A stretch of DNA of 22,140 nt from a virus (lineage: Duplodnaviria > Heunggongvirae > Uroviricota > Caudoviricetes), in IMG/VR virus record IMGVR_UViG_2579779149_000003; one strand, written 5' to 3'. A program made the translations under genes and the position numbers. Below, piece by piece: positions 1,234 through 18,688 of the stretch. The notes under the pieces were generated by a model. It did no database searches. It worked only from the letters and a program-made list of their open reading frames with translations, and was not told where the DNA came from. Within the stretch, counting starts at the first letter, position 1. Each line of letters opens with the position of its first letter.

Positions 1234-1566
1234 TTAAACGATGCTGATTGCCGTTCCGGCAAACGCGGTCCGTTTTTTCGTCTCGTCGCTGGCAGCCTCC
1301 GGCCAGAGCACATCCTCATAACGGAACGTGCCGGACTTGTAGAACGTCAGCGTGGTGCTGGTCTGGTCAGCAGCAACCGCAAGAATGCCAACGGCAGCAC
1401 CGTCGGTGGTGCCATCCCACGCAACCAGCTTACGGCTGGAGGTGTCCAGCATCAGCGGGGTCATTGCAGGCGCTTTCGCACTCAATCCGCCGGGCGCGGT
1501 TGCGGTATGAGCCGGGTCACTGTTGCCCAGCGGCTGGTAATGGGTAAAGGTTTCTTTGCTCGTCAT
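1234..1566 (-). CDS. D: Head decoration protein D (lambda gpD-like, 110 aa)
   Basis: ORF 1234..1572; the lambda gpD start [12 protein letters not shown] corresponds to the third codon, so start is placed at 1566. C-terminus ...[14 protein letters not shown] matches gpD. Confidence 0.93.
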
Positions 1567-1575
1567 AAACATCCC

Positions 1576-2181
1576 TTACACTGGTGTGTTCAGCAAATCG
1601 TTAACGGCATCAGATGCCGGGTTACCTGCAGCCAGCGGTGCCGGTGCCCCCTGCATCAGACGATCCAGCGCAGTGTCACTGCGCGCCTGTGCACTCTGTG
1701 GTGCTGCGGCCAGAATGCGGCGGGCCGTTTCCACGGTCATACCGGGGGTTTCTGCCAGCACGCGTGCCTGTTCTTCGCGTCCGTGAGCCTCCTCACAGTT
1801 GAGGATCCCCATAATGCGGCTGTTTTCTGCCGCAACCGCTGCGGTGATCTGCGCGTTCACGTCCGGCTGCGCCGCGCTGGCGTTTTCGCCCTCCGTCGCT
1901 GGCACCACGTCAGTAACGTCAGCCTGCGAAGCAGTGGCTGAAACAGTTGTTGATTGAGTCTCTTTGGTCATTCGCCCTCCTGAGAGACGGGATTTACGTG
2001 CATCCAGTGCATCACGCATGACGGTGATCGCATCGGTGCTGTTAACAAGTTCATCAGCCAGTCCGGCATCAATGGCCTCCTGACCGCTGTACACTGCAGC
2101 CTCGGTATCCAGCACAGCCTGCACGGACAGGCCGGTATATGCCGACACCTTCTGCGCAAACATCTGGCGGGTTGCGTCCAT
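1576..2181 (-). CDS. Nu3: Scaffolding protein Nu3 (in-frame internal start within C, 201 aa)
   Basis: Internal ATG at 2181..2179 in the C frame gives MDATRQMFAQKV... sharing the C stop; this is the known nested arrangement of lambda Nu3. Confidence 0.7.
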   Translation of the reverse strand: MDATRQMFAQKVSAYTGLSVQAVLDTEAAVYSGQEAIDAGLADELVNSTDAITVMRDALDARKSRLSGGRMTKETQSTTVSATASQADVTDVVPATEGENASAAQPDVNAQITAAVAAENSRIMGILNCEEAHGREEQARVLAETPGMTVETARRILAAAPQSAQARSDTALDRLMQGAPAPLAAGNPASDAVNDLLNTPV

Positions 2182-2875
2182 CCGGGACTGCAGTGTCTCC
2201 CGGACGTCATCCGGAAGATGGCTGTAGGGGTTGCCATCCACCTTATGGCTGCCGCTGTAAATCAGAGTGATTTCCACACCCTGTTTCTCCAGCGCAGCAC
2301 CGTAATTACTGTGAGCCATCATGACGCCGATGGAGCCTGTCCGGGCGGTCTGCGTGACCAGACGCCGGGAGGCGGCACTGGCAAGCAGCTGACCTGCACT
2401 GCAGTTCATGTCGTTGGCCAGCGCCCATACCGGTTTTATGTCACGCACACGGGCGATGATGTCAGCGCAGTCAAATGCCCCCGCCACCATCCCGCCGGGC
2501 GTGTCCATATCGAGCAGAATGCCGTCCACCATCGGATCGCTGGCAGCCTGTTGCAGACGGGCGATAATGCCGTTGTAACCGGTCATCCCCGAGTACGGCT
2601 GCAGCGCCCGCGTCCGGCTGACCAGCGTGCCGGACACCGGCAGCACGGCGATGCCGTTCATGACCTGATAACTGCGGGCCTGTCGTGGTCCGTCATCATC
2701 ACCGGATAATGCCAGCGTCGCGAGTGCCTCCTGGGCAGTCAGGCTGTCGCCGGACACCGCATCCATCAGGCGGCTGATCCCAAGCTGGCCTGCAAGCGCA
2801 CAAAAGAAAACCCGCGCATAGGCGGGTTCAAGCATCAGCGGCTCATTAAAAGCCATGCTGGCAATATGCGGGAGA

Positions 2876-2895
<20 letters not shown>
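1576..2895 (-). CDS. C: Head maturation protease/scaffold C (S49-type, lambda gpC-like, 439 aa, GTG start)
   Basis: The ORF is open from 3030, but the lambda gpC sequence (M)TAELRNLPHIASMAFNEPLML begins at a GTG 439 codons before the stop, giving the usual short overlap with the end of B. Contains the S49-like motif LLDMDTPGGMVAG. Confidence 0.9.
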
Positions 2896-6576
<3,681 letters not shown>

Positions 6577-6602
<26 letters not shown>

Positions 6603-7122
6603 TCAGCAACCCCGGTATCAGTTCATCCAGCGCGGCTGCTTTGTTCATGGCTTTGATGATATCCCGTTTCAGGAAATCAACATGTCGGTTTTCCAGTTCC
6701 GGAAAACGCCGCTGCACCGACAGGGGGATCCCGTCGAGAATACTGGCAATTTCACCTGCGATCCGCGACAGCACGAAAGTACAGAATGCGGTTTCCACCA
6801 CTTCAGCTGAGTCTCTGGCATTCTTCAGTTCCTGTGCGTCGGCCTGCGCACGCGTAAGTCGATGGCGTTCGTACTCAATAGTCCCTGGCTGGAGATCTGC
6901 CTCGCTGGCCTGGCGCAGTTCTTCAACCTCCCGGCGCAGCTTTTCGTTCTCAATTTCAGCATCCCTTTCGGCATACCATTTTATAACGGCGGCAGAGTCA
7001 TAAAGCACCTCATTACCCTTGCCACCGCCTCGCAGAACGGGCATTCCCTGTTCCTGCCAGTTCTGAATGGTACGGATACTCGCACCGAAAATGTCAGCCA
7101 GCTGCTTTTTGTTGACTTCCAT
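6577..7122 (-). CDS. Nu1: Terminase small subunit Nu1 (181 aa)
   Basis: 181-aa ORF MEVNKKQLADIFGASIRTIQNWQEQGMPVLRGGGKGNEVLYDS..., recognised as lambda gpNu1; immediately downstream of cos. Confidence 0.96.
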
Positions 7123-7340
7123 TGTTCATTCCACGGCCAAAAACAGAGAAAGGAAACGACAGAGGCCCAAAAGTTCGTTTTCAGCACCTGTCGTTTCCTT
7201 TCTTTTCAGGGGGTATTTTAAATAAAAACATTAAGTTACGACGAAGAAGAACGGAAACGCCTTAAACCGGAAAATTTTCATAAATAGCGAAAACCCGCGA
7301 GGTCGCCGCCCCGTAGCCTGTCGGATCGCCGGAAAGGACC
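7123..7340 (-). other. cos packaging site (cosB-cosN-cosQ); cosN 12-nt cohesive-end sequence at 7300..7311
   Basis: Reverse complement of 7290..7330 reads ...ACAGGCTACG GGGCGGCGACCT CGCGGGTTTTCGCTATTTATGAAAATTTTCCGG, i.e. the lambda right end joined to the left end with GGGCGGCGACCT intact; the following sequence toward Nu1 matches my recollection of lambda cosB. Confidence 0.85.
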
Positions 7341-7434
7341 CGCCAAAATGAAAATAACTATCAATTGTATTTATAGCTATGATATCCAGAATCATTACTG
7401 AAAGACTCTCTTTGATGTGCGCGTGCGATGCGCA

Positions 7435-7459
7435 TAAAAAAGCCCCGCTACTGCGAGGC
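7435..7459 (-). terminator. Rho-independent terminator downstream of the peptidase gene
   Basis: Minus-strand RNA GCCUCGC-AGUA-GCGGGGC (one G-U pair) followed by six U; sits 24 nt after the stop at 7483. Confidence 0.45.
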
Positions 7460-7482
7460 TAATATGGTGTGTAAATAGGTTC

Positions 7483-8385
7483 TTACGATTGCATATTCCA
7501 AATCATAGCATTCCCATTATGGTTTTCTATGATCTTTGCGATCGGGGCTCCACCAAACGAGTGCATGTAACTGTGATGTATGGTCAAAACCAAATCCTGG
7601 AGGACTTGATCACTTTCCAGTTCTGTAACATTCAATCCAATTTTCTGAGCTTTATCGAAATGGATATGTCTCGAATGAGTGTAAGTTGTATGATGATTGT
7701 TCAGCTCTGAGCATACATGAGTTGCTTTTGTTTCTGACTCCGGATCATTTGCAAACATACCCGTCATAAGCCAGTGCTTGACAATCTCATTCGCCCATTG
7801 GATAGCTTTTTCACACTCTCCGATAATAGTGGGGTTGAGTTTCTGAAGTATAAACTGCCACATTTGCACAGCTGCTGGATTGTTAAAAATTTCCGCCTGA
7901 GCTCTATTCCATTCCTCAATAATAGCATGTGTAGAAAATCCATTAAACTGAGGGTCAATCGGGCCAATATTGGACTGTTTACCCATTATGATTTCATTAG
8001 CACAGCACGCAAGCATGGTACCACATGACATTGAAATCATAGGAACGATAGCTCTGATATCAGTCCCAAACTTAGAACGCAGATAATGACCAATAGACTC
8101 TAAGGCAGCGATATCACCTCCAGGGGTATGTAATATTAAATCCACCCCCTTTGTAACATCTAAACCATTAATAACAGTCATTAATCCATTTTTATCATCA
8201 TCTGTCATCAGGGTGAGATGTCGGACTTCTGCACCACCATGTTGCAACCATCCGGAATAATATGTAATTACATTTCTTCCAGTGTGATTAGACAGTTGTA
8301 ATAAATATTTACGGCGAACCTCATCCATCGGACTCTTCTGGGCGAGAGCCGTCATCTCGCCCAGTACGTCACTCCAATTAGGCAT
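7483..8385 (-). CDS. ClpP-fold serine peptidase (S49/SppA-like or SDH-type), 300 aa, AT-rich accessory gene
   Basis: 300-aa ORF with LILHTPGGDIAALESIGHYL and MISMSCGTMLACCAN motifs, resembling the TPGG and active-site serine regions of S49/ClpP-fold peptidases (compare LLDMDTPGG in gpC in this window). No SD; the ATG lies 5 nt after the upstream stop, implying translational coupling. Family assignment is from motif recognition only. Confidence 0.7.
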   Translation of the reverse strand: MPNWSDVLGEMTALAQKSPMDEVRRKYLLQLSNHTGRNVITYYSGWLQHGGAEVRHLTLMTDDDKNGLMTVINGLDVTKGVDLILHTPGGDIAALESIGHYLRSKFGTDIRAIVPMISMSCGTMLACCANEIIMGKQSNIGPIDPQFNGFSTHAIIEEWNRAQAEIFNNPAAVQMWQFILQKLNPTIIGECEKAIQWANEIVKHWLMTGMFANDPESETKATHVCSELNNHHTTYTHSRHIHFDKAQKIGLNVTELESDQVLQDLVLTIHHSYMHSFGGAPIAKIIENHNGNAMIWNMQS

Positions 8386-8390
8386 GGTGT

Positions 8391-8591
8391 TTAGTAGGTG
8401 TAAAGTTGATGATGTGTACTTTGATTTTGCTTAGCCTGCGCTGCAGTACCTTGAGAGTACCAAACGCCGGTACTACCACTCGTACTCGTTTGTTGAGCAA
8501 GTACCCTGGAAGCAAAGTTGTTAACAGTTTCTCCAGTCATCATCTCTGCAGGTTTAATGCCATAGAAATCGTAGAACTCAGCCGGGCTCAT
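8391..8591 (-). CDS. Hypothetical 66-aa protein, first gene of the peptidase operon
   Basis: ORF MSPAEFYDFYGIKPAEMMTGETVNNFASRVLAQQTSTSGSTGVWYSQGTAAQAKQNQSTHHQLYTY with a good SD (AGGAG about 8 nt upstream of the ATG at 8591); its stop is 5 nt before the peptidase ATG. No family recognised. Confidence 0.55.
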   Translation of the reverse strand: MSPAEFYDFYGIKPAEMMTGETVNNFASRVLAQQTSTSGSTGVWYSQGTAAQAKQNQSTHHQLYTY

Positions 8592-8615
8592 AGTGGAATC
8601 TCCTATTGTAGTGCT

Positions 8616-8653
8616 ACATATAGTGTTTTTTTAACACTGAAAACACTATATGT
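8616..8653. promoter_or_regulatory. Nested palindromic operator-like element in the promoter region of the small-ORF/peptidase operon
   Basis: ACATATAGTGTT (8616..8627) and its exact reverse complement AACACTATATGT (8642..8653), with an internal palindrome AGTGTT-TTTTT-AACACT (8622..8638), 25-60 bp upstream of the ATG at 8591. Confidence 0.4.
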
Positions 8654-8676
8654 GCCATTTACTCAATTTCTAAATG

Positions 8677-8700
8677 TGCAAAAAGCCTCAAATGAGGCTT
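8677..8700 (-). terminator. Terminator-like hairpin upstream of the small-ORF/peptidase operon
   Basis: Perfect inverted repeat AGCCTC-AAAT-GAGGCT (8684..8699); on the minus-strand RNA it is followed by UUUUU. Separates the operon from upstream minus-strand transcription. Confidence 0.4.
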
Positions 8701-8853
8701 AAAAAAAATGAAAAGCTGCTTTCTATGGCTGAACTATAGCGAGTTCCCCACATTTTTTACAACCACAAAATGCTCTTTTACGGCAAAACAATTCTTAGAT
8801 AAAACACACAACCATGTCGCACTTACACACATTCGCTTACAAAAGTATTAGTT

Positions 8854-9069
8854 TCAATACATTCTACAGTTAGCCTGCACTGATTTGTTATGCGCCAATA
8901 TGTCCCGCTTCGTCTGCTTATCCTGCACGGTAATATCGTGCTCAGTGAGGTAGATGATGTTCACCCAGTCACAAGCCGTGTCTGTTACTGCAGTTTTTTC
9001 GGGTAAATCTTTCGCGCAACTCACGGTCAACATCGCCATCAGGAAGATGATTAACAATCTGCTGTACAT
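8854..9069 (-). CDS. Putative o-spanin-like secreted or lipoprotein (71 aa), overlapping the 3' end of the preceding gene in another frame
   Basis: MYSRLLIIFLMAMLTVSCAKDLPEKTAV... has a signal-peptide-like N-terminus with Cys18 (non-canonical lipobox TVSC). It starts inside and extends beyond the 8969..9247 ORF, the overlapped Rz/Rz1-type architecture. Confidence 0.35.
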   Translation of the reverse strand: MYSRLLIIFLMAMLTVSCAKDLPEKTAVTDTACDWVNIIYLTEHDITVQDKQTKRDILAHNKSVQANCRMY

Positions 9070-9247
9070 CCCAGGCTCCTTTTGTTGTTTCTACCCGGCG
9101 TATTGCAACGACTTCAGTAGCAGTTGCACGTTCTTTAGTGCGTTGCTGGTTCGCTTTTGTCTCAGCGATACTTGCACCGCGAGATTTACCCAGACCAAAA
9201 GCACCGGCTATTACTGCCAGCAAGGCAGCAATCAGGCCGACAATCAT
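8969..9247 (-). CDS. Putative i-spanin-like membrane protein (92 aa from the internal ATG at 9247)
   Basis: From ATG 9247: MIVGLIAALLAVIAGAFGLGKSRGASIAETKANQQRTKERATATEVV..., an N-terminal TM helix followed by a charged domain. Starts 20 nt after the stop of the endolysin remnant. The longer 166-aa version of this ORF was rejected. Confidence 0.35.
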   Translation of the reverse strand: MIVGLIAALLAVIAGAFGLGKSRGASIAETKANQQRTKERATATEVVAIRRVETTKGAWDVQQIVNHLPDGDVDRELRERFTRKNCSNRHGL

Positions 9248-9269
9248 TTCAATTCCCACATAGACCTCA

Positions 9270-9440
9270 CACCAATGCGGCTTTAGCTTTGACGTAACGT
9301 TCACGGCGGTCTTTAATGCCGTTTTTCCCACCATTAATAATCTGCGTGACGCGCTCCAGATCTTCCGGGTAAAGGAGACAACCACGTAACGTGAAGAACC
9401 AAGCAGCAGAACGGGGAGCATGAGAGACAAACCCGCGAAC
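9270..9440 (-). pseudogene. 3' remnant of a GH19 (chitinase-like) endolysin gene
   Basis: The minus-strand frame ending at stop 9267..9269 translates ...SAAWFFTLRGCLLYPEDLERVTQIINGGKNGIKDRRERYVKAKAALV, matching the conserved C-terminal IINGG-NG-DR-RY motif of GH19 endolysins. The frame upstream has no credible N-terminal catalytic domain and is closed by a stop near 9500. Confidence 0.5.
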
Positions 9441-9677
9441 CATAAACGCGGTAAAAACCCTGTGTGCATCGTTTTTAATTATTCCCGGACACTCCCGCAG
9501 AGAAGTTCCCCGTCAGGGCTGTGGACATAGTTAATCCGGGAATACAATGACGATTCATCGCACCTGACATACATTAATAAATATTAACAATATGAAATTT
9601 CAACTCATTGTTTAGGGTTTGTTTAATTTTCTACACATACGATTCTGCGAACTTCAAAAAGCATCGGGAATAACACC

Positions 9678-9971
9678 ATGAAAAAAATGCTACTCGCTAC
9701 TGCGCTGGCCCTGCTTATTACAGGATGTGCTCAACAGACGTTTACTGTTCAAAACAAACCGGCAGCAGTAGCACCAAAGGAAACCATCACCCATCATTTC
9801 TTCGTTTCGGGAATTGGACAGGAGAAAACTGTTGATGCAGCCAAAATTTGTGGCGGCGCAGAAAATGTTGTTAAAACAGAAACCCAGCAAACATTCGTAA
9901 ATGGATTTCTCGGTTTTATTACTTTAGGCATTTATACTCCACTGGAAGCGCGTGTGTATTGCTCACAATAA
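9678..9971 (+). CDS. bor: Bor lipoprotein (serum-resistance lysogenic-conversion protein, 97 aa)
   Basis: MKKMLLATALALLITGCAQQTFTVQNKPAAVAPKETITHHFFVSGIGQ... matches lambda Bor; opposite strand to the lysis genes as in lambda. Confidence 0.95.
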   Translation: MKKMLLATALALLITGCAQQTFTVQNKPAAVAPKETITHHFFVSGIGQEKTVDAAKICGGAENVVKTETQQTFVNGFLGFITLGIYTPLEARVYCSQ

Positions 9972-10002
9972 TTGCATGAGTTGCCCATCGATATGGGCAG
10001 CT

Positions 10003-10479
10003 CTATCTGCACTGCTCATTAATATACTTCTGGGTTCCTTCCAGTTGTTTTTGCATAGTGATCAGCCTCTCTCTGAGGGTGAAATAATCCCGTTCAGCGG
10101 TGTCTGCCAGTCGGGGGCTGGTTGCATTATCCACGCCGGAGGCGGTGGTGGCTTCACGCACTGACTGACAGACTGCTTTGATGTGCAACCGACGACGACC
10201 AGCGGCAACATCAGCGCGCAGAGTTTCATTTTCAGCTTTCGCATTGGCTAATTCTCTCGAGTACTTTGCATCGAGTGCAGCAACATCACGCTGACGCTGC
10301 TGCATGTCAGCGATGGTGGCGATCGACTGCTTCAGCTCACTGACTTTTTTATCACGCTGTTCTTTGTAGGCGATGGCGTTATCACGGTAATGATTGACCG
10401 CCCACGACAGGCAGACGATGATGCAGATAACCAAAGCATAAATAATCGCGGCGACTCTGCTCACTGCTCTATCCCCCAA
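10003..10479 (-). CDS. Rz: i-spanin Rz (lambda-like)
   Basis: 158-aa ORF with N-terminal TM segment [25 protein letters not shown] and C-terminus ...[23 protein letters not shown], as in lambda Rz. Confidence 0.9.
10062..10244 (-). CDS. Rz1: o-spanin Rz1 lipoprotein, embedded in Rz in the +1 frame
   Basis: [60 protein letters not shown]: lipobox VVGC and proline-rich tail, lambda Rz1-like. Confidence 0.9.
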
Positions 10480-10994
10480 CAGGCTAATGCGCTTTCCTGG
10501 TCACGACGAATAACCTGTCCATAGCAGTTATTTGAACGTATGCGGCAATCGCGCCCACCATCTTTTATCCACCAGCGAATCGCCTCGCATGCGCCCTTAC
10601 GATCACCGGCATTCAGCCGCTTATAAAACGTCGACGGGAAACACTTACCGGGGCCAATGTTATAGGGACAGAATGACGCTATACCCGCTTTTTGTGGTTC
10701 GGTCAGTGGTACTTTAATATTGCGCTCCACCCATGCCAGCGCCTTATCACGCTCAATGGCGTTGACCTGGTCGCATTTTTCCTTCGACAGTTTCATACCG
10801 GGAAAAACGGGTTTTCCATCCACCATCGTGGCACCCCGACAGATGGTCCAGATGCCGGACCCATCGCGGTATGCCGTTGTGTGGTTACCTTCTTTTTCAT
10901 CCAGAAACTGGTCGAGAATATCAGGCGCGGGCGCACCGACGGCAATCAGTGCCAGAACGGCAGCCGACAGGCCGTATCTGATTTTTGCGTTCAT
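10461..10994 (-). CDS. R: SAR endolysin (T4-lysozyme-type muramidase, RrrQ/R21-like, 177 aa)
   Basis: N-terminal signal-anchor-release-like segment [17 protein letters not shown] followed by the catalytic region [20 protein letters not shown]; resembles the E. coli Qin-prophage lysozyme RrrQ as I recall it. Confidence 0.88.
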
Positions 10995-12449: not shown

Positions 12450-12494
12450 TATCTGTATCCTGTGGCTATTTCTCTTGCGCAAAGGATGCTTTTG

Positions 12495-13373
12495 ATGACG
12501 CAGCAACTCGAAAACATGCCAATAACAGAAATCGAAATTGCCTACGGTGGAGAGGCATACGCAGATAATCAGATCGACGCGAAAACATTAGGCGAAGCCT
12601 TAACCTCTCTTAGTGCCCTGATTGAACACGCCGAAAAAATAATTAATGGCGAAACAGCAGAGCCGAAAGTCAACATCAAGGCAACAAAAGAAGGTTCATT
12701 TACTTTGCTTGTTGCTGTGATGGGGAGCATAAAAACTATTAACGCCCTTGGCCTCGTTGCAGGTGGTGGAGTTGCCGCAGGTGGCGTACTCGGGATAATC
12801 GAATGGCTCAAAGGGCGTAAAATCAGCTCCATTGTCGTCGATGAACAAAAAGATACAGCAGAAATCGAAGTGGATGGTGAGAAGGTTAAATGCAGTAACG
12901 ACATTCAAAAATTAATAACCAGTCCAATCATCCGAAAAGAACTGGATAAATTAATCTATAAACCCCTGCAGACTGAAAAACCATCCACGTTCTCAGTTTC
13001 ACAGCAGAAGCATAAGGTAGTCAGGGTGACGCAAGCTGAAGCAGTAAGTTTTAAAACTGCAAAATCCACCTTTGTCGAGAAAACGCACGTAACGACACGC
13101 CAAGCTAATGTACATTTTGCTAATGTTCGATTCAAGCAAGGCAAAAGCTGGGATATCATCCTGCCAAATGGCGAAGAAGTTAGCGCATCTATGAAAGATG
13201 AGGCTTTTCTTGAACGGGTTGAACACAACCAAGCAGCATTCTGTAAGGGTGATCTTTTTGTTGTAGAACTGACAGAAACAACAAAAGAAACAAATGGCGC
13301 GCTGTCTAAACCACGCTATAGTATTACTAAGGTTATACGCCACAGAGCGGCGGCAGATAGGAAACTACTTTAA
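12495..13373 (+). CDS. Hypothetical membrane-associated protein (about 292 aa), first gene of an AT-rich three-gene cassette
   Basis: ORF open from 12462 (GTG); the preferred start ATG 12495 (MTQQLENMPITEIEIAYGGE...) has AAGGA 9 nt upstream. Central glycine-rich hydrophobic segment SFTLLVAVMGSIKTINALGLVAGGGVAAGGVLGIIEWL flanked by soluble N- and C-terminal regions. No family recognised. Confidence 0.65.
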   Translation: MTQQLENMPITEIEIAYGGEAYADNQIDAKTLGEALTSLSALIEHAEKIINGETAEPKVNIKATKEGSFTLLVAVMGSIKTINALGLVAGGGVAAGGVLGIIEWLKGRKISSIVVDEQKDTAEIEVDGEKVKCSNDIQKLITSPIIRKELDKLIYKPLQTEKPSTFSVSQQKHKVVRVTQAEAVSFKTAKSTFVEKTHVTTRQANVHFANVRFKQGKSWDIILPNGEEVSASMKDEAFLERVEHNQAAFCKGDLFVVELTETTKETNGALSKPRYSITKVIRHRAAADRKLL

Positions 13374-13622: not shown

Positions 13623-14009
13623 ATGGCGAACACTAAATCCTACCTGGCAATGCAGGCATGGTTTACCACCCTTATCACTGCGGGATTGAATTTCCTTTTT
13701 GACTGGCTTCCTCAATTAGCCTTCTTCAAATCATTGGCGCCTGGAGCTGCTGTCGGCTTATCTCATGTGGTAATTCTTCTTATCGCTTACATAGGTTTGC
13801 CTACGCTTAATGATGTAAGAATGAAAAGGGAAATAAAAACGGCCAGAAAATTCATCACGAACTGCCTGGCCAACCCTAACCTAACACCAGACCAAATTGC
13901 GCACTACAACCAATGTCTTATCGATCTAGACAATAAGCTATTAAAAAACATAAATATTCGTATTGATGCTTTATCTGACGCCGAATCGAAAGCTCAAGCA
14001 AACGAGTAG
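13623..14009 (+). CDS. Hypothetical membrane protein (128 aa, two predicted TM helices)
   Basis: MANTKSYLAMQAWFTTLITAGLNFLFDWLPQLAFFKSLAPGAAVGLSHVVILLIAYIGL... then a soluble tail; the ATG directly abuts the upstream stop (tgaATG). Confidence 0.6.
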   Translation: MANTKSYLAMQAWFTTLITAGLNFLFDWLPQLAFFKSLAPGAAVGLSHVVILLIAYIGLPTLNDVRMKREIKTARKFITNCLANPNLTPDQIAHYNQCLIDLDNKLLKNINIRIDALSDAESKAQANE

Positions 14010-14022
14010 TAACAGTCATAAC

Positions 14023-14382
14023 TTATGATAGAATCAAGCATATACATCCATCAATAAAGCCTAATGCAGTTTGCAGCTCCTTTCTTATAGTTCCATCTGA
14101 GCACCTGCGTTTCTTCGCGATTGAGCGTAGAGAAACACCAATAACAAAGTGAGCTATGAGCAGCTCATATTCCTCTGGTTTATACTTTCGCAACCGAGCC
14201 ACACAACCGTCTATCATGATGCCTTCATCATCATCACACTGGAGACGTGACTTTTTGCCATGTGGCAAAAGCCCCTTGAAGCCCGCTGCTATCGGTTGCC
14301 AATCGACACCGCTATTTTCTGCTGCAGCCCATGCCCCCCAGCGATCTAAAACCTCATACATATCACGCCCCATTACCATCAC
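14023..14382 (-). CDS. Q: Late-gene antiterminator Q (QuuD/Phage_antitermQ-type, about 116-119 aa)
   Basis: MMVMGRDMYEVLDRWGAWAAAENSGVDWQPIAAGFKGLLPHGKKSRLQCDDD...CSDGTIRKELQTALGFIDG aligns by eye with DLP12 QuuD (ERWGAWAA, IAAGFKGL, KSRPQC, CSDG). The start may be the internal ATG at 14373. Confidence 0.85.
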   Translation of the reverse strand: MMVMGRDMYEVLDRWGAWAAAENSGVDWQPIAAGFKGLLPHGKKSRLQCDDDEGIMIDGCVARLRKYKPEEYELLIAHFVIGVSLRSIAKKRRCSDGTIRKELQTALGFIDGCICLILS

Positions 14383-17650: not shown

Positions 17651-18688
17651 TTAATTACCCTTATCAATTTTAAGAAATACATTTCCAATCTCATCAGAAT
17701 AATCCTGTATTATTTTTGAAATGACGGCATGATCAATGGTTGGTTTTAAAAATAAAAGTGTCACAGTAATCTGCATCAAACTAATAGCAGTAGCATGGGC
17801 TGGATCAGCCATTCCTGAATCACTTTGCCCGACCAATAATATATCATCACCAGTTTCACAGAGACCAAGCCTATTTCTCATTGCCTTGGAACCGGTGTGT
17901 ACATTCTGACTCGCCCACTTATAATAAGGGCGCATGTGTTCTAACTGAACATCTTTCTCAATAGCTCCAAACCCCACTTTATTATGGTTAGGGAAAATAT
18001 AAGATGCCCAGCCATAATTATCTGCATATTTTTTGCCATATTTTTTTATTAATATATCAAATTGAACTTTACACTCAGCTATTTCTTCAATAGTTGGACC
18101 TTTTGCTTCTAACCGGTGCTCGTACTTTTTGTGTTCCAACATTCCAGTATATGAATCAACCACTTCATGGTAGTAAAAGCGCTCAGCACACTCTTTTCCA
18201 TGCTTTGCTATAAACATAGCTGTGGCCGCTACCTCATGAAGTGCTCGCCATCTCGCTTGGGCAGCATCTGCAAATCCATTCTTTAAGAGACACAAAATTT
18301 CGTTGGCGATGTGGCAAGCTCTTGCGTGATGCCGAACGACTAAATCAAAAACCACATCCTCTTCAGAGGCAGCTTGTGGTCTATAAGAACGATTGAACTC
18401 TTCACCGGACTCCGTGCATATCACTATAAGTGTTTCGAGCAAATCAAAAGCCTCTGCCCATCTTGAAATATTTCTCTCAACAAATTCATCACAAAGAGAA
18501 CGATGTTCTCTAAGCATTGCATTGGCCGAGCCAATAAGAGATTTTTTAACGACAATGGCTATTTTGGGAATTAGGTTATTAATTTCTTTTTCGATATCAG
18601 CGTCACCAGATAAATCAAGTCTCTCTTTTAAAAGGCTGTCTATGTGCTCAAGCAAAATATTATGAAAAGTATCCATGTCATATCTCAA
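17651..18688 (-). CDS. Hypothetical 345-aa protein, AT-rich orphan gene (candidate defence or abortive-infection gene)
   Basis: Long ORF MRYDMDTFHNILLEHIDSLLKERLDLSGDADIEKEINNLIPK... with K/I/N/E-rich composition, flanked by AT-rich intergenic regions. No family recognised. Confidence 0.7.
   Translation of the reverse strand: MRYDMDTFHNILLEHIDSLLKERLDLSGDADIEKEINNLIPKIAIVVKKSLIGSANAMLREHRSLCDEFVERNISRWAEAFDLLETLIVICTESGEEFNRSYRPQAASEEDVVFDLVVRHHARACHIANEILCLLKNGFADAAQARWRALHEVAATAMFIAKHGKECAERFYYHEVVDSYTGMLEHKKYEHRLEAKGPTIEEIAECKVQFDILIKKYGKKYADNYGWASYIFPNHNKVGFGAIEKDVQLEHMRPYYKWASQNVHTGSKAMRNRLGLCETGDDILLVGQSDSGMADPAHATAISLMQITVTLLFLKPTIDHAVISKIIQDYSDEIGNVFLKIDKGN

Follow-up and report, generated by a model that had tools for sequence, protein, structure and literature searches.

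What is the role of a two-gene unit, coding for a small protein and a ClpP-fold serine peptidase, that sits between the lysis genes and the cos site of a lambda-like prophage? The question is raised by a stretch of 22,140 nucleotides (nt) assigned to the Caudoviricetes (IMG/VR record IMGVR_UViG_2579779149_000003), called here, at its full length, the window. The window is a lambda-like Escherichia coli prophage read on the reverse strand, near-identical to and collinear with E. coli EC14 and other strains over window positions 1,500-10,400. A preliminary description of the window had singled out this pair of genes and suggested a protease-gated toxin, substrate or sensor system rather than a structural function. 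We have found that the peptidase, of 300 amino acids (aa), usually comes together with a dedicated partner, here of 66 aa, and sequence comparison indicates that the pairing is old and co-inherited. The composite reading that we favor, with a probability of roughly 0.4, is that of a mobile two-gene cargo whose protease would be gated by its partner, or would process it, and would act in phage-host or phage-phage conflict. The cassette and its immediate surroundings are laid out as follows.

8733-8762, minus strand: predicted cassette promoter of the sigma-70 type (TTGTAA, 18 nt, TATAGT)
8679-8700, minus strand: leader hairpin T1, an AAGCCUC/GAGGCUU stem plus a U-run, intrinsic-terminator-like
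8616-8653, minus strand: leader hairpin hp2, ACAUAUAGUGUUUU ... AAAACACUAUAUGU, with core arms like CUACAUnUnGUG / CACUAnAUGUAG
8600-8604, minus strand: Shine-Dalgarno (SD) sequence of the partner, AGGAG, 8 nt upstream of its ATG
8391-8591, minus strand: open reading frame (ORF) of the 66-aa partner, stop included
8386-8390, minus strand: intercistronic spacer ACACC, 5 nt, read from the sequence
7483-8385, minus strand: ORF of the 300-aa SDH-type ClpP-fold serine peptidase, stop included
7433-7460, minus strand: predicted intrinsic terminator 3' of the protease gene, an 8-pair stem (6 G-C) followed by UUUUUUAU
7300-7311: cosN, GGGCGGCGACCT

Both ORFs proved to be as first described, the small one with a good SD and the large one starting 5 nt downstream without any; the TAA is followed by ACACC and then by the ATG, and the junction (CTTTACACCTACTAAACACCATG) has no purine-rich SD. 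We infer that the partner would be made in fixed proportion to the protease by translational coupling.

The 300-aa protein had been expected to match Peptidase_S49 or the SDH family on the strength of its TPGG and SMSCG motifs, which are present as HTPGGD (residues 86-91) and MSCGT (119-123). The match is to PF01972, the SDH-type ClpP-fold family (79.1 bits against a gathering score of 31.3, E 3.7e-22, residues 22-255), and the only other Pfam match, to PF25145, likewise a ClpP-fold family, is weak (25 bits vs 40). The NCBIfam equivalog NF047768 (Clp_like_SDH) gives 92.7 bits, so far under its cut-off of 250 that the protein is best taken as a distinct SDH subfamily, and the protein also falls far short of the cut-off of the SppA model. 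Its fold is that of ClpP and crotonase, and the ClpP nucleophile corresponds to S120, which aligns with the catalytic Ser in both ClpP and 1510-N. Over 84 diverse homologues, conservation reaches at least 95% at H86, S120, K136, D144, H237, H240, H270 and H271. Of these, D144 and H237/H240/H270/H271 stand in Ser-Asp-His order relative to S120, and the catalytic triad is probably Ser120-Asp144-His. With PF01972 and the NCBI entry “SDH family Clp fold serine proteinase”, the name used by RefSeq, the protein shares the profile match, the ClpP/crotonase fold, the Ser and the downstream Asp and His. It differs from the PF01972 description in its dedicated small partner and in two conserved features, the MPNW N-terminus (MPNW..VL.E) and a His-rich C-terminal helical part. 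In the libraries searched there was no solved structure and no described function for this subfamily.

The MPNW..VL.E N-terminus is kept from Enterobacteria to Firmicutes and archaea. RefSeq (PGAP; WP_240760433.1, WP_223610852.1) starts the protease at the internal M20, giving a protein of 281 aa that is 19 codons too short; conservation of the 19 codons in front of M20 (MPNWSDVLGEM...) from phylum to phylum places the true start at the first ATG. A copy of the pair with 81% identity was found in a second E. coli lineage, in another lambdoid prophage and with both ORFs intact. The ratio of non-synonymous to synonymous substitution rates (dN/dS) of the protease against this copy is 0.017, indicating purifying selection. 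The C-terminus is extended by 30-60 residues rich in Gln and Pro in some homologues, which come from Firmicutes and one proteobacterial clade (proteins P0058, P0075, P0077, P0078, P0080 and P0117; loci L045, L051, L055, L072 and L087). The proteobacterial clade with these extensions has a partner of another sequence class, without the Tyr-Ser motif described below.

Evidence that the small gene belongs to the protease comes from the comparison of loci across species. A locus was counted as paired when a same-strand ORF of 45-130 aa ended between -70 and +40 of the protease ATG. By this measure 61 of 78 species-level loci have the small ORF, against 93 of 348 control genes (27%) taken from the same loci (Fisher P 4.6e-17). 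The stop codon of the partner falls between -58 and +29 of the protease ATG across species, and between -9 and +8 in 37 of the 61. The preliminary description had named loss of the pairing across homologues as a result that would speak against it; what we found is a pairing that is kept, with a small and translationally coupled partner. In the Enterobacter, Proteus and Aeromonas copies the small ORF lies directly 5' of the protease and always ends in LYTY. With an iterated profile the partner could be recovered at 91 of 173 loci, among them those of archaea and of the Gordonia phage BeeGee. The sequence classes of the partner map onto clades of the protease tree, and profile-profile links between these classes are moderate (P 5e-5 to 7e-4). 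The loci without partner are essentially one Clostridia/Lachnospiraceae clade.

The junction itself is often compact. In 12 loci the two genes overlap by 8 nt, with the stop of the partner being the TAA inside ATGCCTAAT. Met-Pro-Asn at the start of the protease is often encoded by this same ATGCCTAAT (compare window positions 8374-8405), and its +2-frame TAA ends the partner in the 12 species concerned. This double use is a possible reason for the conservation of the sequence at the level of both protein and coupling.

Two other lines of comparison gave nothing to build on. None of the hits is a natural fusion of the two proteins; those of greater length are N-terminal mis-starts or carry the Gln/Pro-rich extensions. 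A docking surface was sought among residues that distinguish partnered from partnerless proteases, and the only two that differ, L31 and C127, were uninformative. We also observed one E. coli-type prophage contig (L180, 5608-6735) in which the protease is frameshifted (51 aa + 244 aa) and a 69-aa partner is intact, a case of enzyme decay with the partner retained. At one of the partnerless Clostridia loci, in a Mogibacterium metagenome-assembled genome (L071, around position 5000), an ORF that ends 23 nt 5' of the protease resembles, by eye, an HsdR C-terminal domain; other partnerless loci have AAA_21/RloB, UvrD/GajB-like and AriA-like neighbors.

The partner has also been kept by selection. 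Against the 81%-identical copy its dN/dS is 0.063 (13.5 non-synonymous and 26.5 synonymous differences), indicating purifying selection, and it evolves about three times faster than the protease. It corresponds to PHROG 25714 (function unknown) and to the RefSeq hypothetical protein WP_029397174.1. It matches no Pfam or NCBIfam family, and ten diverse relatives are likewise without a Pfam match. An AlphaFold (AF2) model made from an alignment of 39 relatives has helices at residues 3-10 and 23-37, with a predicted local distance difference test (pLDDT) score of about 80-85, and a tail, residues 39-66, that is predicted to be disordered (pLDDT <50). In this tail Y45 is invariant and Tyr45-Ser46 near-invariant, and the enterobacterial partners have a strictly conserved C-terminus, [LM]Y[ST]Y. 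The different classes share an architecture made of an N-terminal F..LG[IL], a hydrophobic strand and a Ser/Thr-rich end.

A single-sequence search finds just 9 close clusters of the partner, and recovery of the rest required synteny and locally iterated profiles. Searched against 1.84 billion representatives, a hidden Markov model of the partner found 155 cluster representatives, nearly all of 52-90 aa with two long outliers, and the matches span most of each protein. Gene callers frequently miss this family, and in RefSeq the small gene is absent from the annotation of many genomes and at least one phage. The gene is intact yet unannotated in the 81% copy (L002, 9986-10186, E. coli YPE10). 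In phage BeeGee it is unannotated upstream of gp31 (L093, around 3825-4001), where the protein ends in ...VRYSTSATR and its gene overlaps the protease ATG.

In front of the pair we found a leader whose order (promoter, some 30 nt, T1, hp2, SD) is kept in 25 non-redundant copies from Enterobacterales and Aeromonas. The promoter pair TTGnnn, 17-18 nt, cTATAGT recurs in Enterobacter, Mangrovibacter, Buttiauxella, Kluyvera, Proteus and Aeromonas, in varied prophage contexts. In a consensus scan the window promoter scores 9/12, and that of a locus in which the cassette lies between Q and holin (L114) scores 10/12. Over the 25 leaders both hairpins covary. In T1, pair 54-68 is CG in 10 and GC in 9, pair 56-66 is CG in 12 and UA in 7, and pair 57-65 is CG in 9 and UA in 8. 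In hp2, which ends about 12 nt upstream of the SD, the central pair is AU in 7, GC in 6, CG in 3, GU in 3 and UG in 2, and pair 124-159 is CG in 16 and UA in 6. The covariation of the whole structure is 0.315 vs 0.189 in shuffles (0 of 500 shuffles reach 0.315), and controls slid along the alignment give at most 0.15. RNAalifold independently predicts T1 and hp2, and the folding z-score of the leader is -3.5 vs shuffles. The leader matches no family in Rfam, apart from one chance mir-223 hairpin below threshold.

We also considered hp2 as a protein operator or as direct repeats. Inverted registration fits the alignment better, and the tolerated G-U pairs together with the covarying center argue for an RNA element and make a role as DNA operator less likely. 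A second promoter between T1 and hp2 was rejected, as no conserved -35/-10 could be seen by eye over the 25 leaders, and the site found there by the scan in the window (TTTAGA-18-TATAGT) is not conserved. Nor is the leader universal, since the terminator layout is confined to Enterobacterales and Aeromonas and any terminator-like hairpin is present in just 7 of 31 other leaders.

The pair had been described as bracketed by hairpins. Both hairpins exist, and in this the description holds; their role as borders does not. The upstream one lies inside the unit, which reaches to about 8765 because the predicted promoter is located beyond T1. The downstream one is common to phages that have no cassette: window positions 7400-7465 are 88-92% identical to mEp237, HK639 (where a terminator is annotated), mEp213 and mEp043, all of them cassette-free. 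The downstream terminator is therefore an element of the phage backbone, and these 66 nt are all that related lambda-like phages share with the cassette region of the window. Being a terminator within the leader, T1 would be expected to lower expression of the cassette from its promoter by attenuation. Where the cassette lies between Q and holin, as in L114, the protease gene is followed by a strong terminator and the holin gene lacks a preceding promoter, so that late transcription modified by Q must cross the whole cassette.

The rest of the window places the cassette between modules of a lambdoid genome.

14023-14382, minus strand: Q antiterminator (PF06530)
10003-10994, minus strand: lysis genes R and Rz
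9678-9971, plus strand: bor
8854-9422, minus strand: second lysis-module remnant, a GH19 endolysin C-terminal fragment and an Rz/Rz1-like spanin pair
6577-7122, minus strand: nu1
4677-6602, minus strand: large terminase subunit
1576-3030, minus strand: gpC, the S49 head protease of the window (PF01343, E 1.7e-44), adjoining portal and capsid genes

The position between the lysis/bor region and cos, outside a head module that has its own S49 protease, agrees with what had been noted before, and so does the AT-rich composition, with a GC content of 0.41 in the cassette module vs 0.54 in the terminase genes. The second lysis remnant duplicates the function of the intact R/Rz genes. Its spanins match PHROG 1275 and 1026 (Rz-like), and RefSeq annotates the region as “glycoside hydrolase family 19 protein, incomplete” plus two hypothetical genes. 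Intact GH19 modules were found alongside the cassette in Enterobacter and Klebsiella prophages. The remnant upstream of the cassette is probably the recombination scar of its arrival.

The protease family has more than 7,800 database hits. A scan of 100,044 species, each represented by one genome, gave 345 loci (identity about 50%), distributed over almost all the bacterial phyla and also Methanosarcinales. The pair is present in 23 of 5,426 complete E. coli genomes, with one and at most two copies per genome; E. coli strains that have it include EC14 and A28. The cassette was found in 7 of 50,697 sequenced phage isolates and on 160 IMG/VR contigs, and close relatives on 4 of 72,556 plasmids. 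No fixed third gene accompanies it. Among 150 neighbors of 48 distinct viral loci, classified by PHROG, there are 13 integrases, 12 Q antiterminators and about 20 lysis proteins, and the chromosomal neighbors are a mix of integrases, transposases, methyltransferases and housekeeping genes. The genomic contexts are varied.

Between Q and holin: Enterobacter and Klebsiella prophages, often adjoining an orphan N6/N4 methyltransferase
Between lysis genes and cos: the prophage of the window and the 81% copy
At the prophage end by the tail-fiber genes: Proteus
Beside the integrase at the prophage edge: Pseudomonas, a leaderless copy
Between Mor/C and lysis genes: Mu-like phages of Aeromonas and Shewanella
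Beside HicAB: Porphyromonas phages
After the minor tail genes: Gordonia phage BeeGee

By its location between modules, its atypical GC, its own predicted promoter and its patchy presence among relatives, the cassette can be classed as a moron, i.e., temperate-phage cargo that moves by recombination, and the moron layout recognized in the preliminary description stands on the low GC, the promoter and the related phages that lack the unit. It resembles the lambdoid morons and late cargo (bor, lom, stx, orphan methyltransferases) in its intermodule position, lower GC, own promoter and terminator, patchiness and location downstream of Q. Unlike them, it consists of an enzyme system of two proteins preceded by a structured leader, and Mu-like phages, actinophages, Bacteroidota prophages and archaea have it as well.

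Some observations on other cargo can be added here. In a Mu-like prophage of Aeromonas hydrophila (L010, 3784-5034) a TIR_2 gene and a 127-aa companion lie immediately upstream of Mor and the cassette, in the opposite orientation, and look like a second cargo unit, of the defence type. A prophage of Klebsiella aerogenes (L177, 13136-13420) has an Acb2/Tad1-hairpin gene, resembling the anti-CBASS/anti-Thoeris sponges, after its lysis cassette, with the pair before it. The orphan N6/N4 methyltransferase adjoins the pair in several prophages (L177-L180). In the window, two plus-strand ORFs (12462-13373, 303 aa, and 13623-14009, 128 aa) lie between Q and the lysis genes, antisense to the late operon, and have no Pfam match. 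Further upstream there is a gene for a DUF5677 protein (17651-18688, minus strand). These three are possibly additional cargo genes.

How could such a pair work? We propose a cytoplasmic SDH-type ClpP-fold peptidase that acts with its dedicated 66-aa partner and would have no role in virion assembly. The two-helix N-terminal part of the partner would dock on the peptidase, and the disordered tail, with its Tyr45-Ser46 and, in enterobacteria, the LYTY end, may enter the substrate groove near Ser120, either as a dedicated substrate or as a pseudosubstrate lid. With the tail occupying the active-site groove, proteolytic output would depend on the state of the partner. In the prophage state a constitutive sigma-70 promoter would be attenuated by the leader terminator, and during late lytic transcription Q antitermination would read through it. 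The presence of the cassette in cargo hot spots and variable regions, across phyla and in Methanosarcinales, fits a role in conflict (defence, exclusion or counter-defence). Its location inside the Q-dependent late operon of lambdoid phages makes a lytic-phase or counter-defence role just as plausible as defence. A more specific version of the proposal, which we put forward as tentative, is an undescribed and widely transferred two-component proteolytic conflict system, with an SDH peptidase gated by a disordered-tail partner and switched on at infection or induction; it would abort or exclude rival phages or disarm host immunity, and its enterobacterial form would be under a new structured leader RNA.

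Several results weigh against the composite reading. About one fifth of the species-level loci, those of the Clostridia/Lachnospiraceae clade, are without partner, and the existence of this clade means that the protease can work, or be tolerated, alone. PADLOC-DB v2 gave no match for protease or partner at E up to 0.1. Of the 207 proteins encoded no more than two genes away from the cassette, about 15 have defence-family (PADLOC) matches, a coarse count; these matches include methyltransferases, mad2/3, AriA-like, GajB, DRT and DrmD, and are suggestive at most. The assignment of the catalytic Asp and His is one by conservation alone, the cassette promoter and terminators are predictions by consensus match, and the leader terminator is limited to one lineage. 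A full-text literature search returned no description of the protease-partner pair; the “Clp-like protease” of CP-933O and that of Aravind's conflict systems are other proteins. The earlier statement that no phage-defence system of such composition had been described agrees with what we found in PADLOC and in the literature searched.

Other explanations have to be weighed, and the first of them is an addiction module of the toxin-antitoxin (TA) kind. The protease would be a toxin that degrades essential proteins, and the labile small protein would block its active site until loss of the element, or the shut-off that accompanies infection, set the protease free. There is a precedent for a subtilisin-like serine protease as toxin in ietAS (cited in PMC13069673). 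Like the type II TA systems and ietAS, the cassette is a small two-gene mobile unit in which a fast-evolving first gene is placed upstream of, and coupled to or overlapping, a larger enzyme gene. The threefold faster evolution of the partner and its disordered tail, found also in many antitoxins, fit this explanation, as do the location on mobile elements, with HicAB adjoining in the Porphyromonas phages, and the E. coli contig in which the protease is frameshifted and the small ORF survives. However, unlike in type II TA, no DNA-binding antitoxin domain could be recognized (the 11 diverse partners examined have no Pfam domain) and hp2 behaves like an RNA hairpin, not like an operator. The cassette is also rare on plasmids (the 4 of 72,556 given above), there are one or two copies per E. 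coli genome, PADLOC has no match, and a whole clade has the protease without partner, which argues against an obligatory antitoxin. Unlike ietAS, the cassette has no ATPase component. We regard an addiction module as rather unlikely.

Just as improbable, in our judgment, is that the pair serves the phage as a helper or counter-defence factor of the lytic phase. It would then be expressed late under Q, as stx is, with the protease degrading immune, envelope or stress proteins and the partner acting as chaperone, inhibitor or specificity factor. The lambdoid cassettes are indeed inside the late operon (from Q to holin, or from lysis genes to cos), no promoter separates the cassette terminator from holin in L114, and an Acb2/Tad1-like anti-defence gene shares the cargo region in the Klebsiella prophage. 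A promoter followed closely by a terminator also recalls the PR'-tR' logic. Against this, copies with the same promoter and leader are found at prophage ends (the tail-fiber end in Proteus) and between Mor and the lysis genes in Mu-like phages, and a leaderless copy lies beside the integrase in Pseudomonas. The cassette is present as well in non-phage chromosomal regions and in archaea, and the 7 phage isolates among 50,697 that carry it were judged, from their names and contexts, to be temperate or prophage-derived.

A third explanation makes the partner a propeptide and the protease its maturase, which would cut the tail around Tyr-Ser and free a signal or effector peptide. The conserved disordered C-terminal tail with its invariant Y-S, the strict LY[ST]Y end of the enterobacterial proteins and the dedicated protease gene alongside fit such a system. 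However, the cassette comes without signal peptide, exporter or receptor gene, no third gene is fixed, and beyond Y-S the tail is not conserved outside the enterobacteria. We consider this explanation very unlikely.

A structural role for the 300-aa protein, be it as head-maturation protease, as scaffold protease or as a duplicate of the structural module's own enzyme, can practically be discarded, as the preliminary description had already argued: the gene does lie near cos and the terminase genes and has weak similarity to the ClpP-related head-maturation model NF045542 (E 4.5e-4) and to phrog_53 (E 1.3e-4), but both are far below cut-off (20.2 bits vs 120 for NF045542), the window has its own gpC S49 protease by the portal and capsid genes, the cassette is beyond cos from the head genes and missing in related lambda-like phages, and its homologues adjoin integrases, Q, lysis and housekeeping genes.

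Returning to the partner-gated or partner-processing protease, the nearest functional analogy is that of the NfeD protease 1510-N and stomatin in Pyrococcus (PH1510/PH1511), where a ClpP-fold protease is encoded together with the protein on which it acts. The differences are considerable. The partner in the cassette is soluble, of 66 aa and without an SPFH domain, and the protease has no membrane or OB domain. NfeD uses a Ser-Lys dyad, whereas the cassette protease probably has Ser-Asp-His, and cleavage of the partner is here a proposal. A further precedent is SppA, in whose active sites C-termini are bound (4kwb). The prohead protease of lambda (gpC/S49) and SppA belong to another family, PF01343, and structural genes do not form the context of the cassette protein. 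The enzyme family and the concept of the moron are already known; what is new is the small-protein family of the partner, the two-component cassette and its leader.

These results indicate that a large protease family, named until now by annotation pipelines, usually comes with a dedicated small partner that is mostly unannotated, and that temperate phages and other mobile regions carry the pair as cargo across phyla and domains. The promoter, terminator and covarying hairpin of the enterobacterial leader make it a candidate for a new cis-regulatory RNA. The pair also offers a simple two-gene model for the control of a self-compartmentalizing protease by a small disordered protein. If a role in defence or counter-defence is true, it would add a protease-based mechanism of new composition to the conflict between phages and their hosts.

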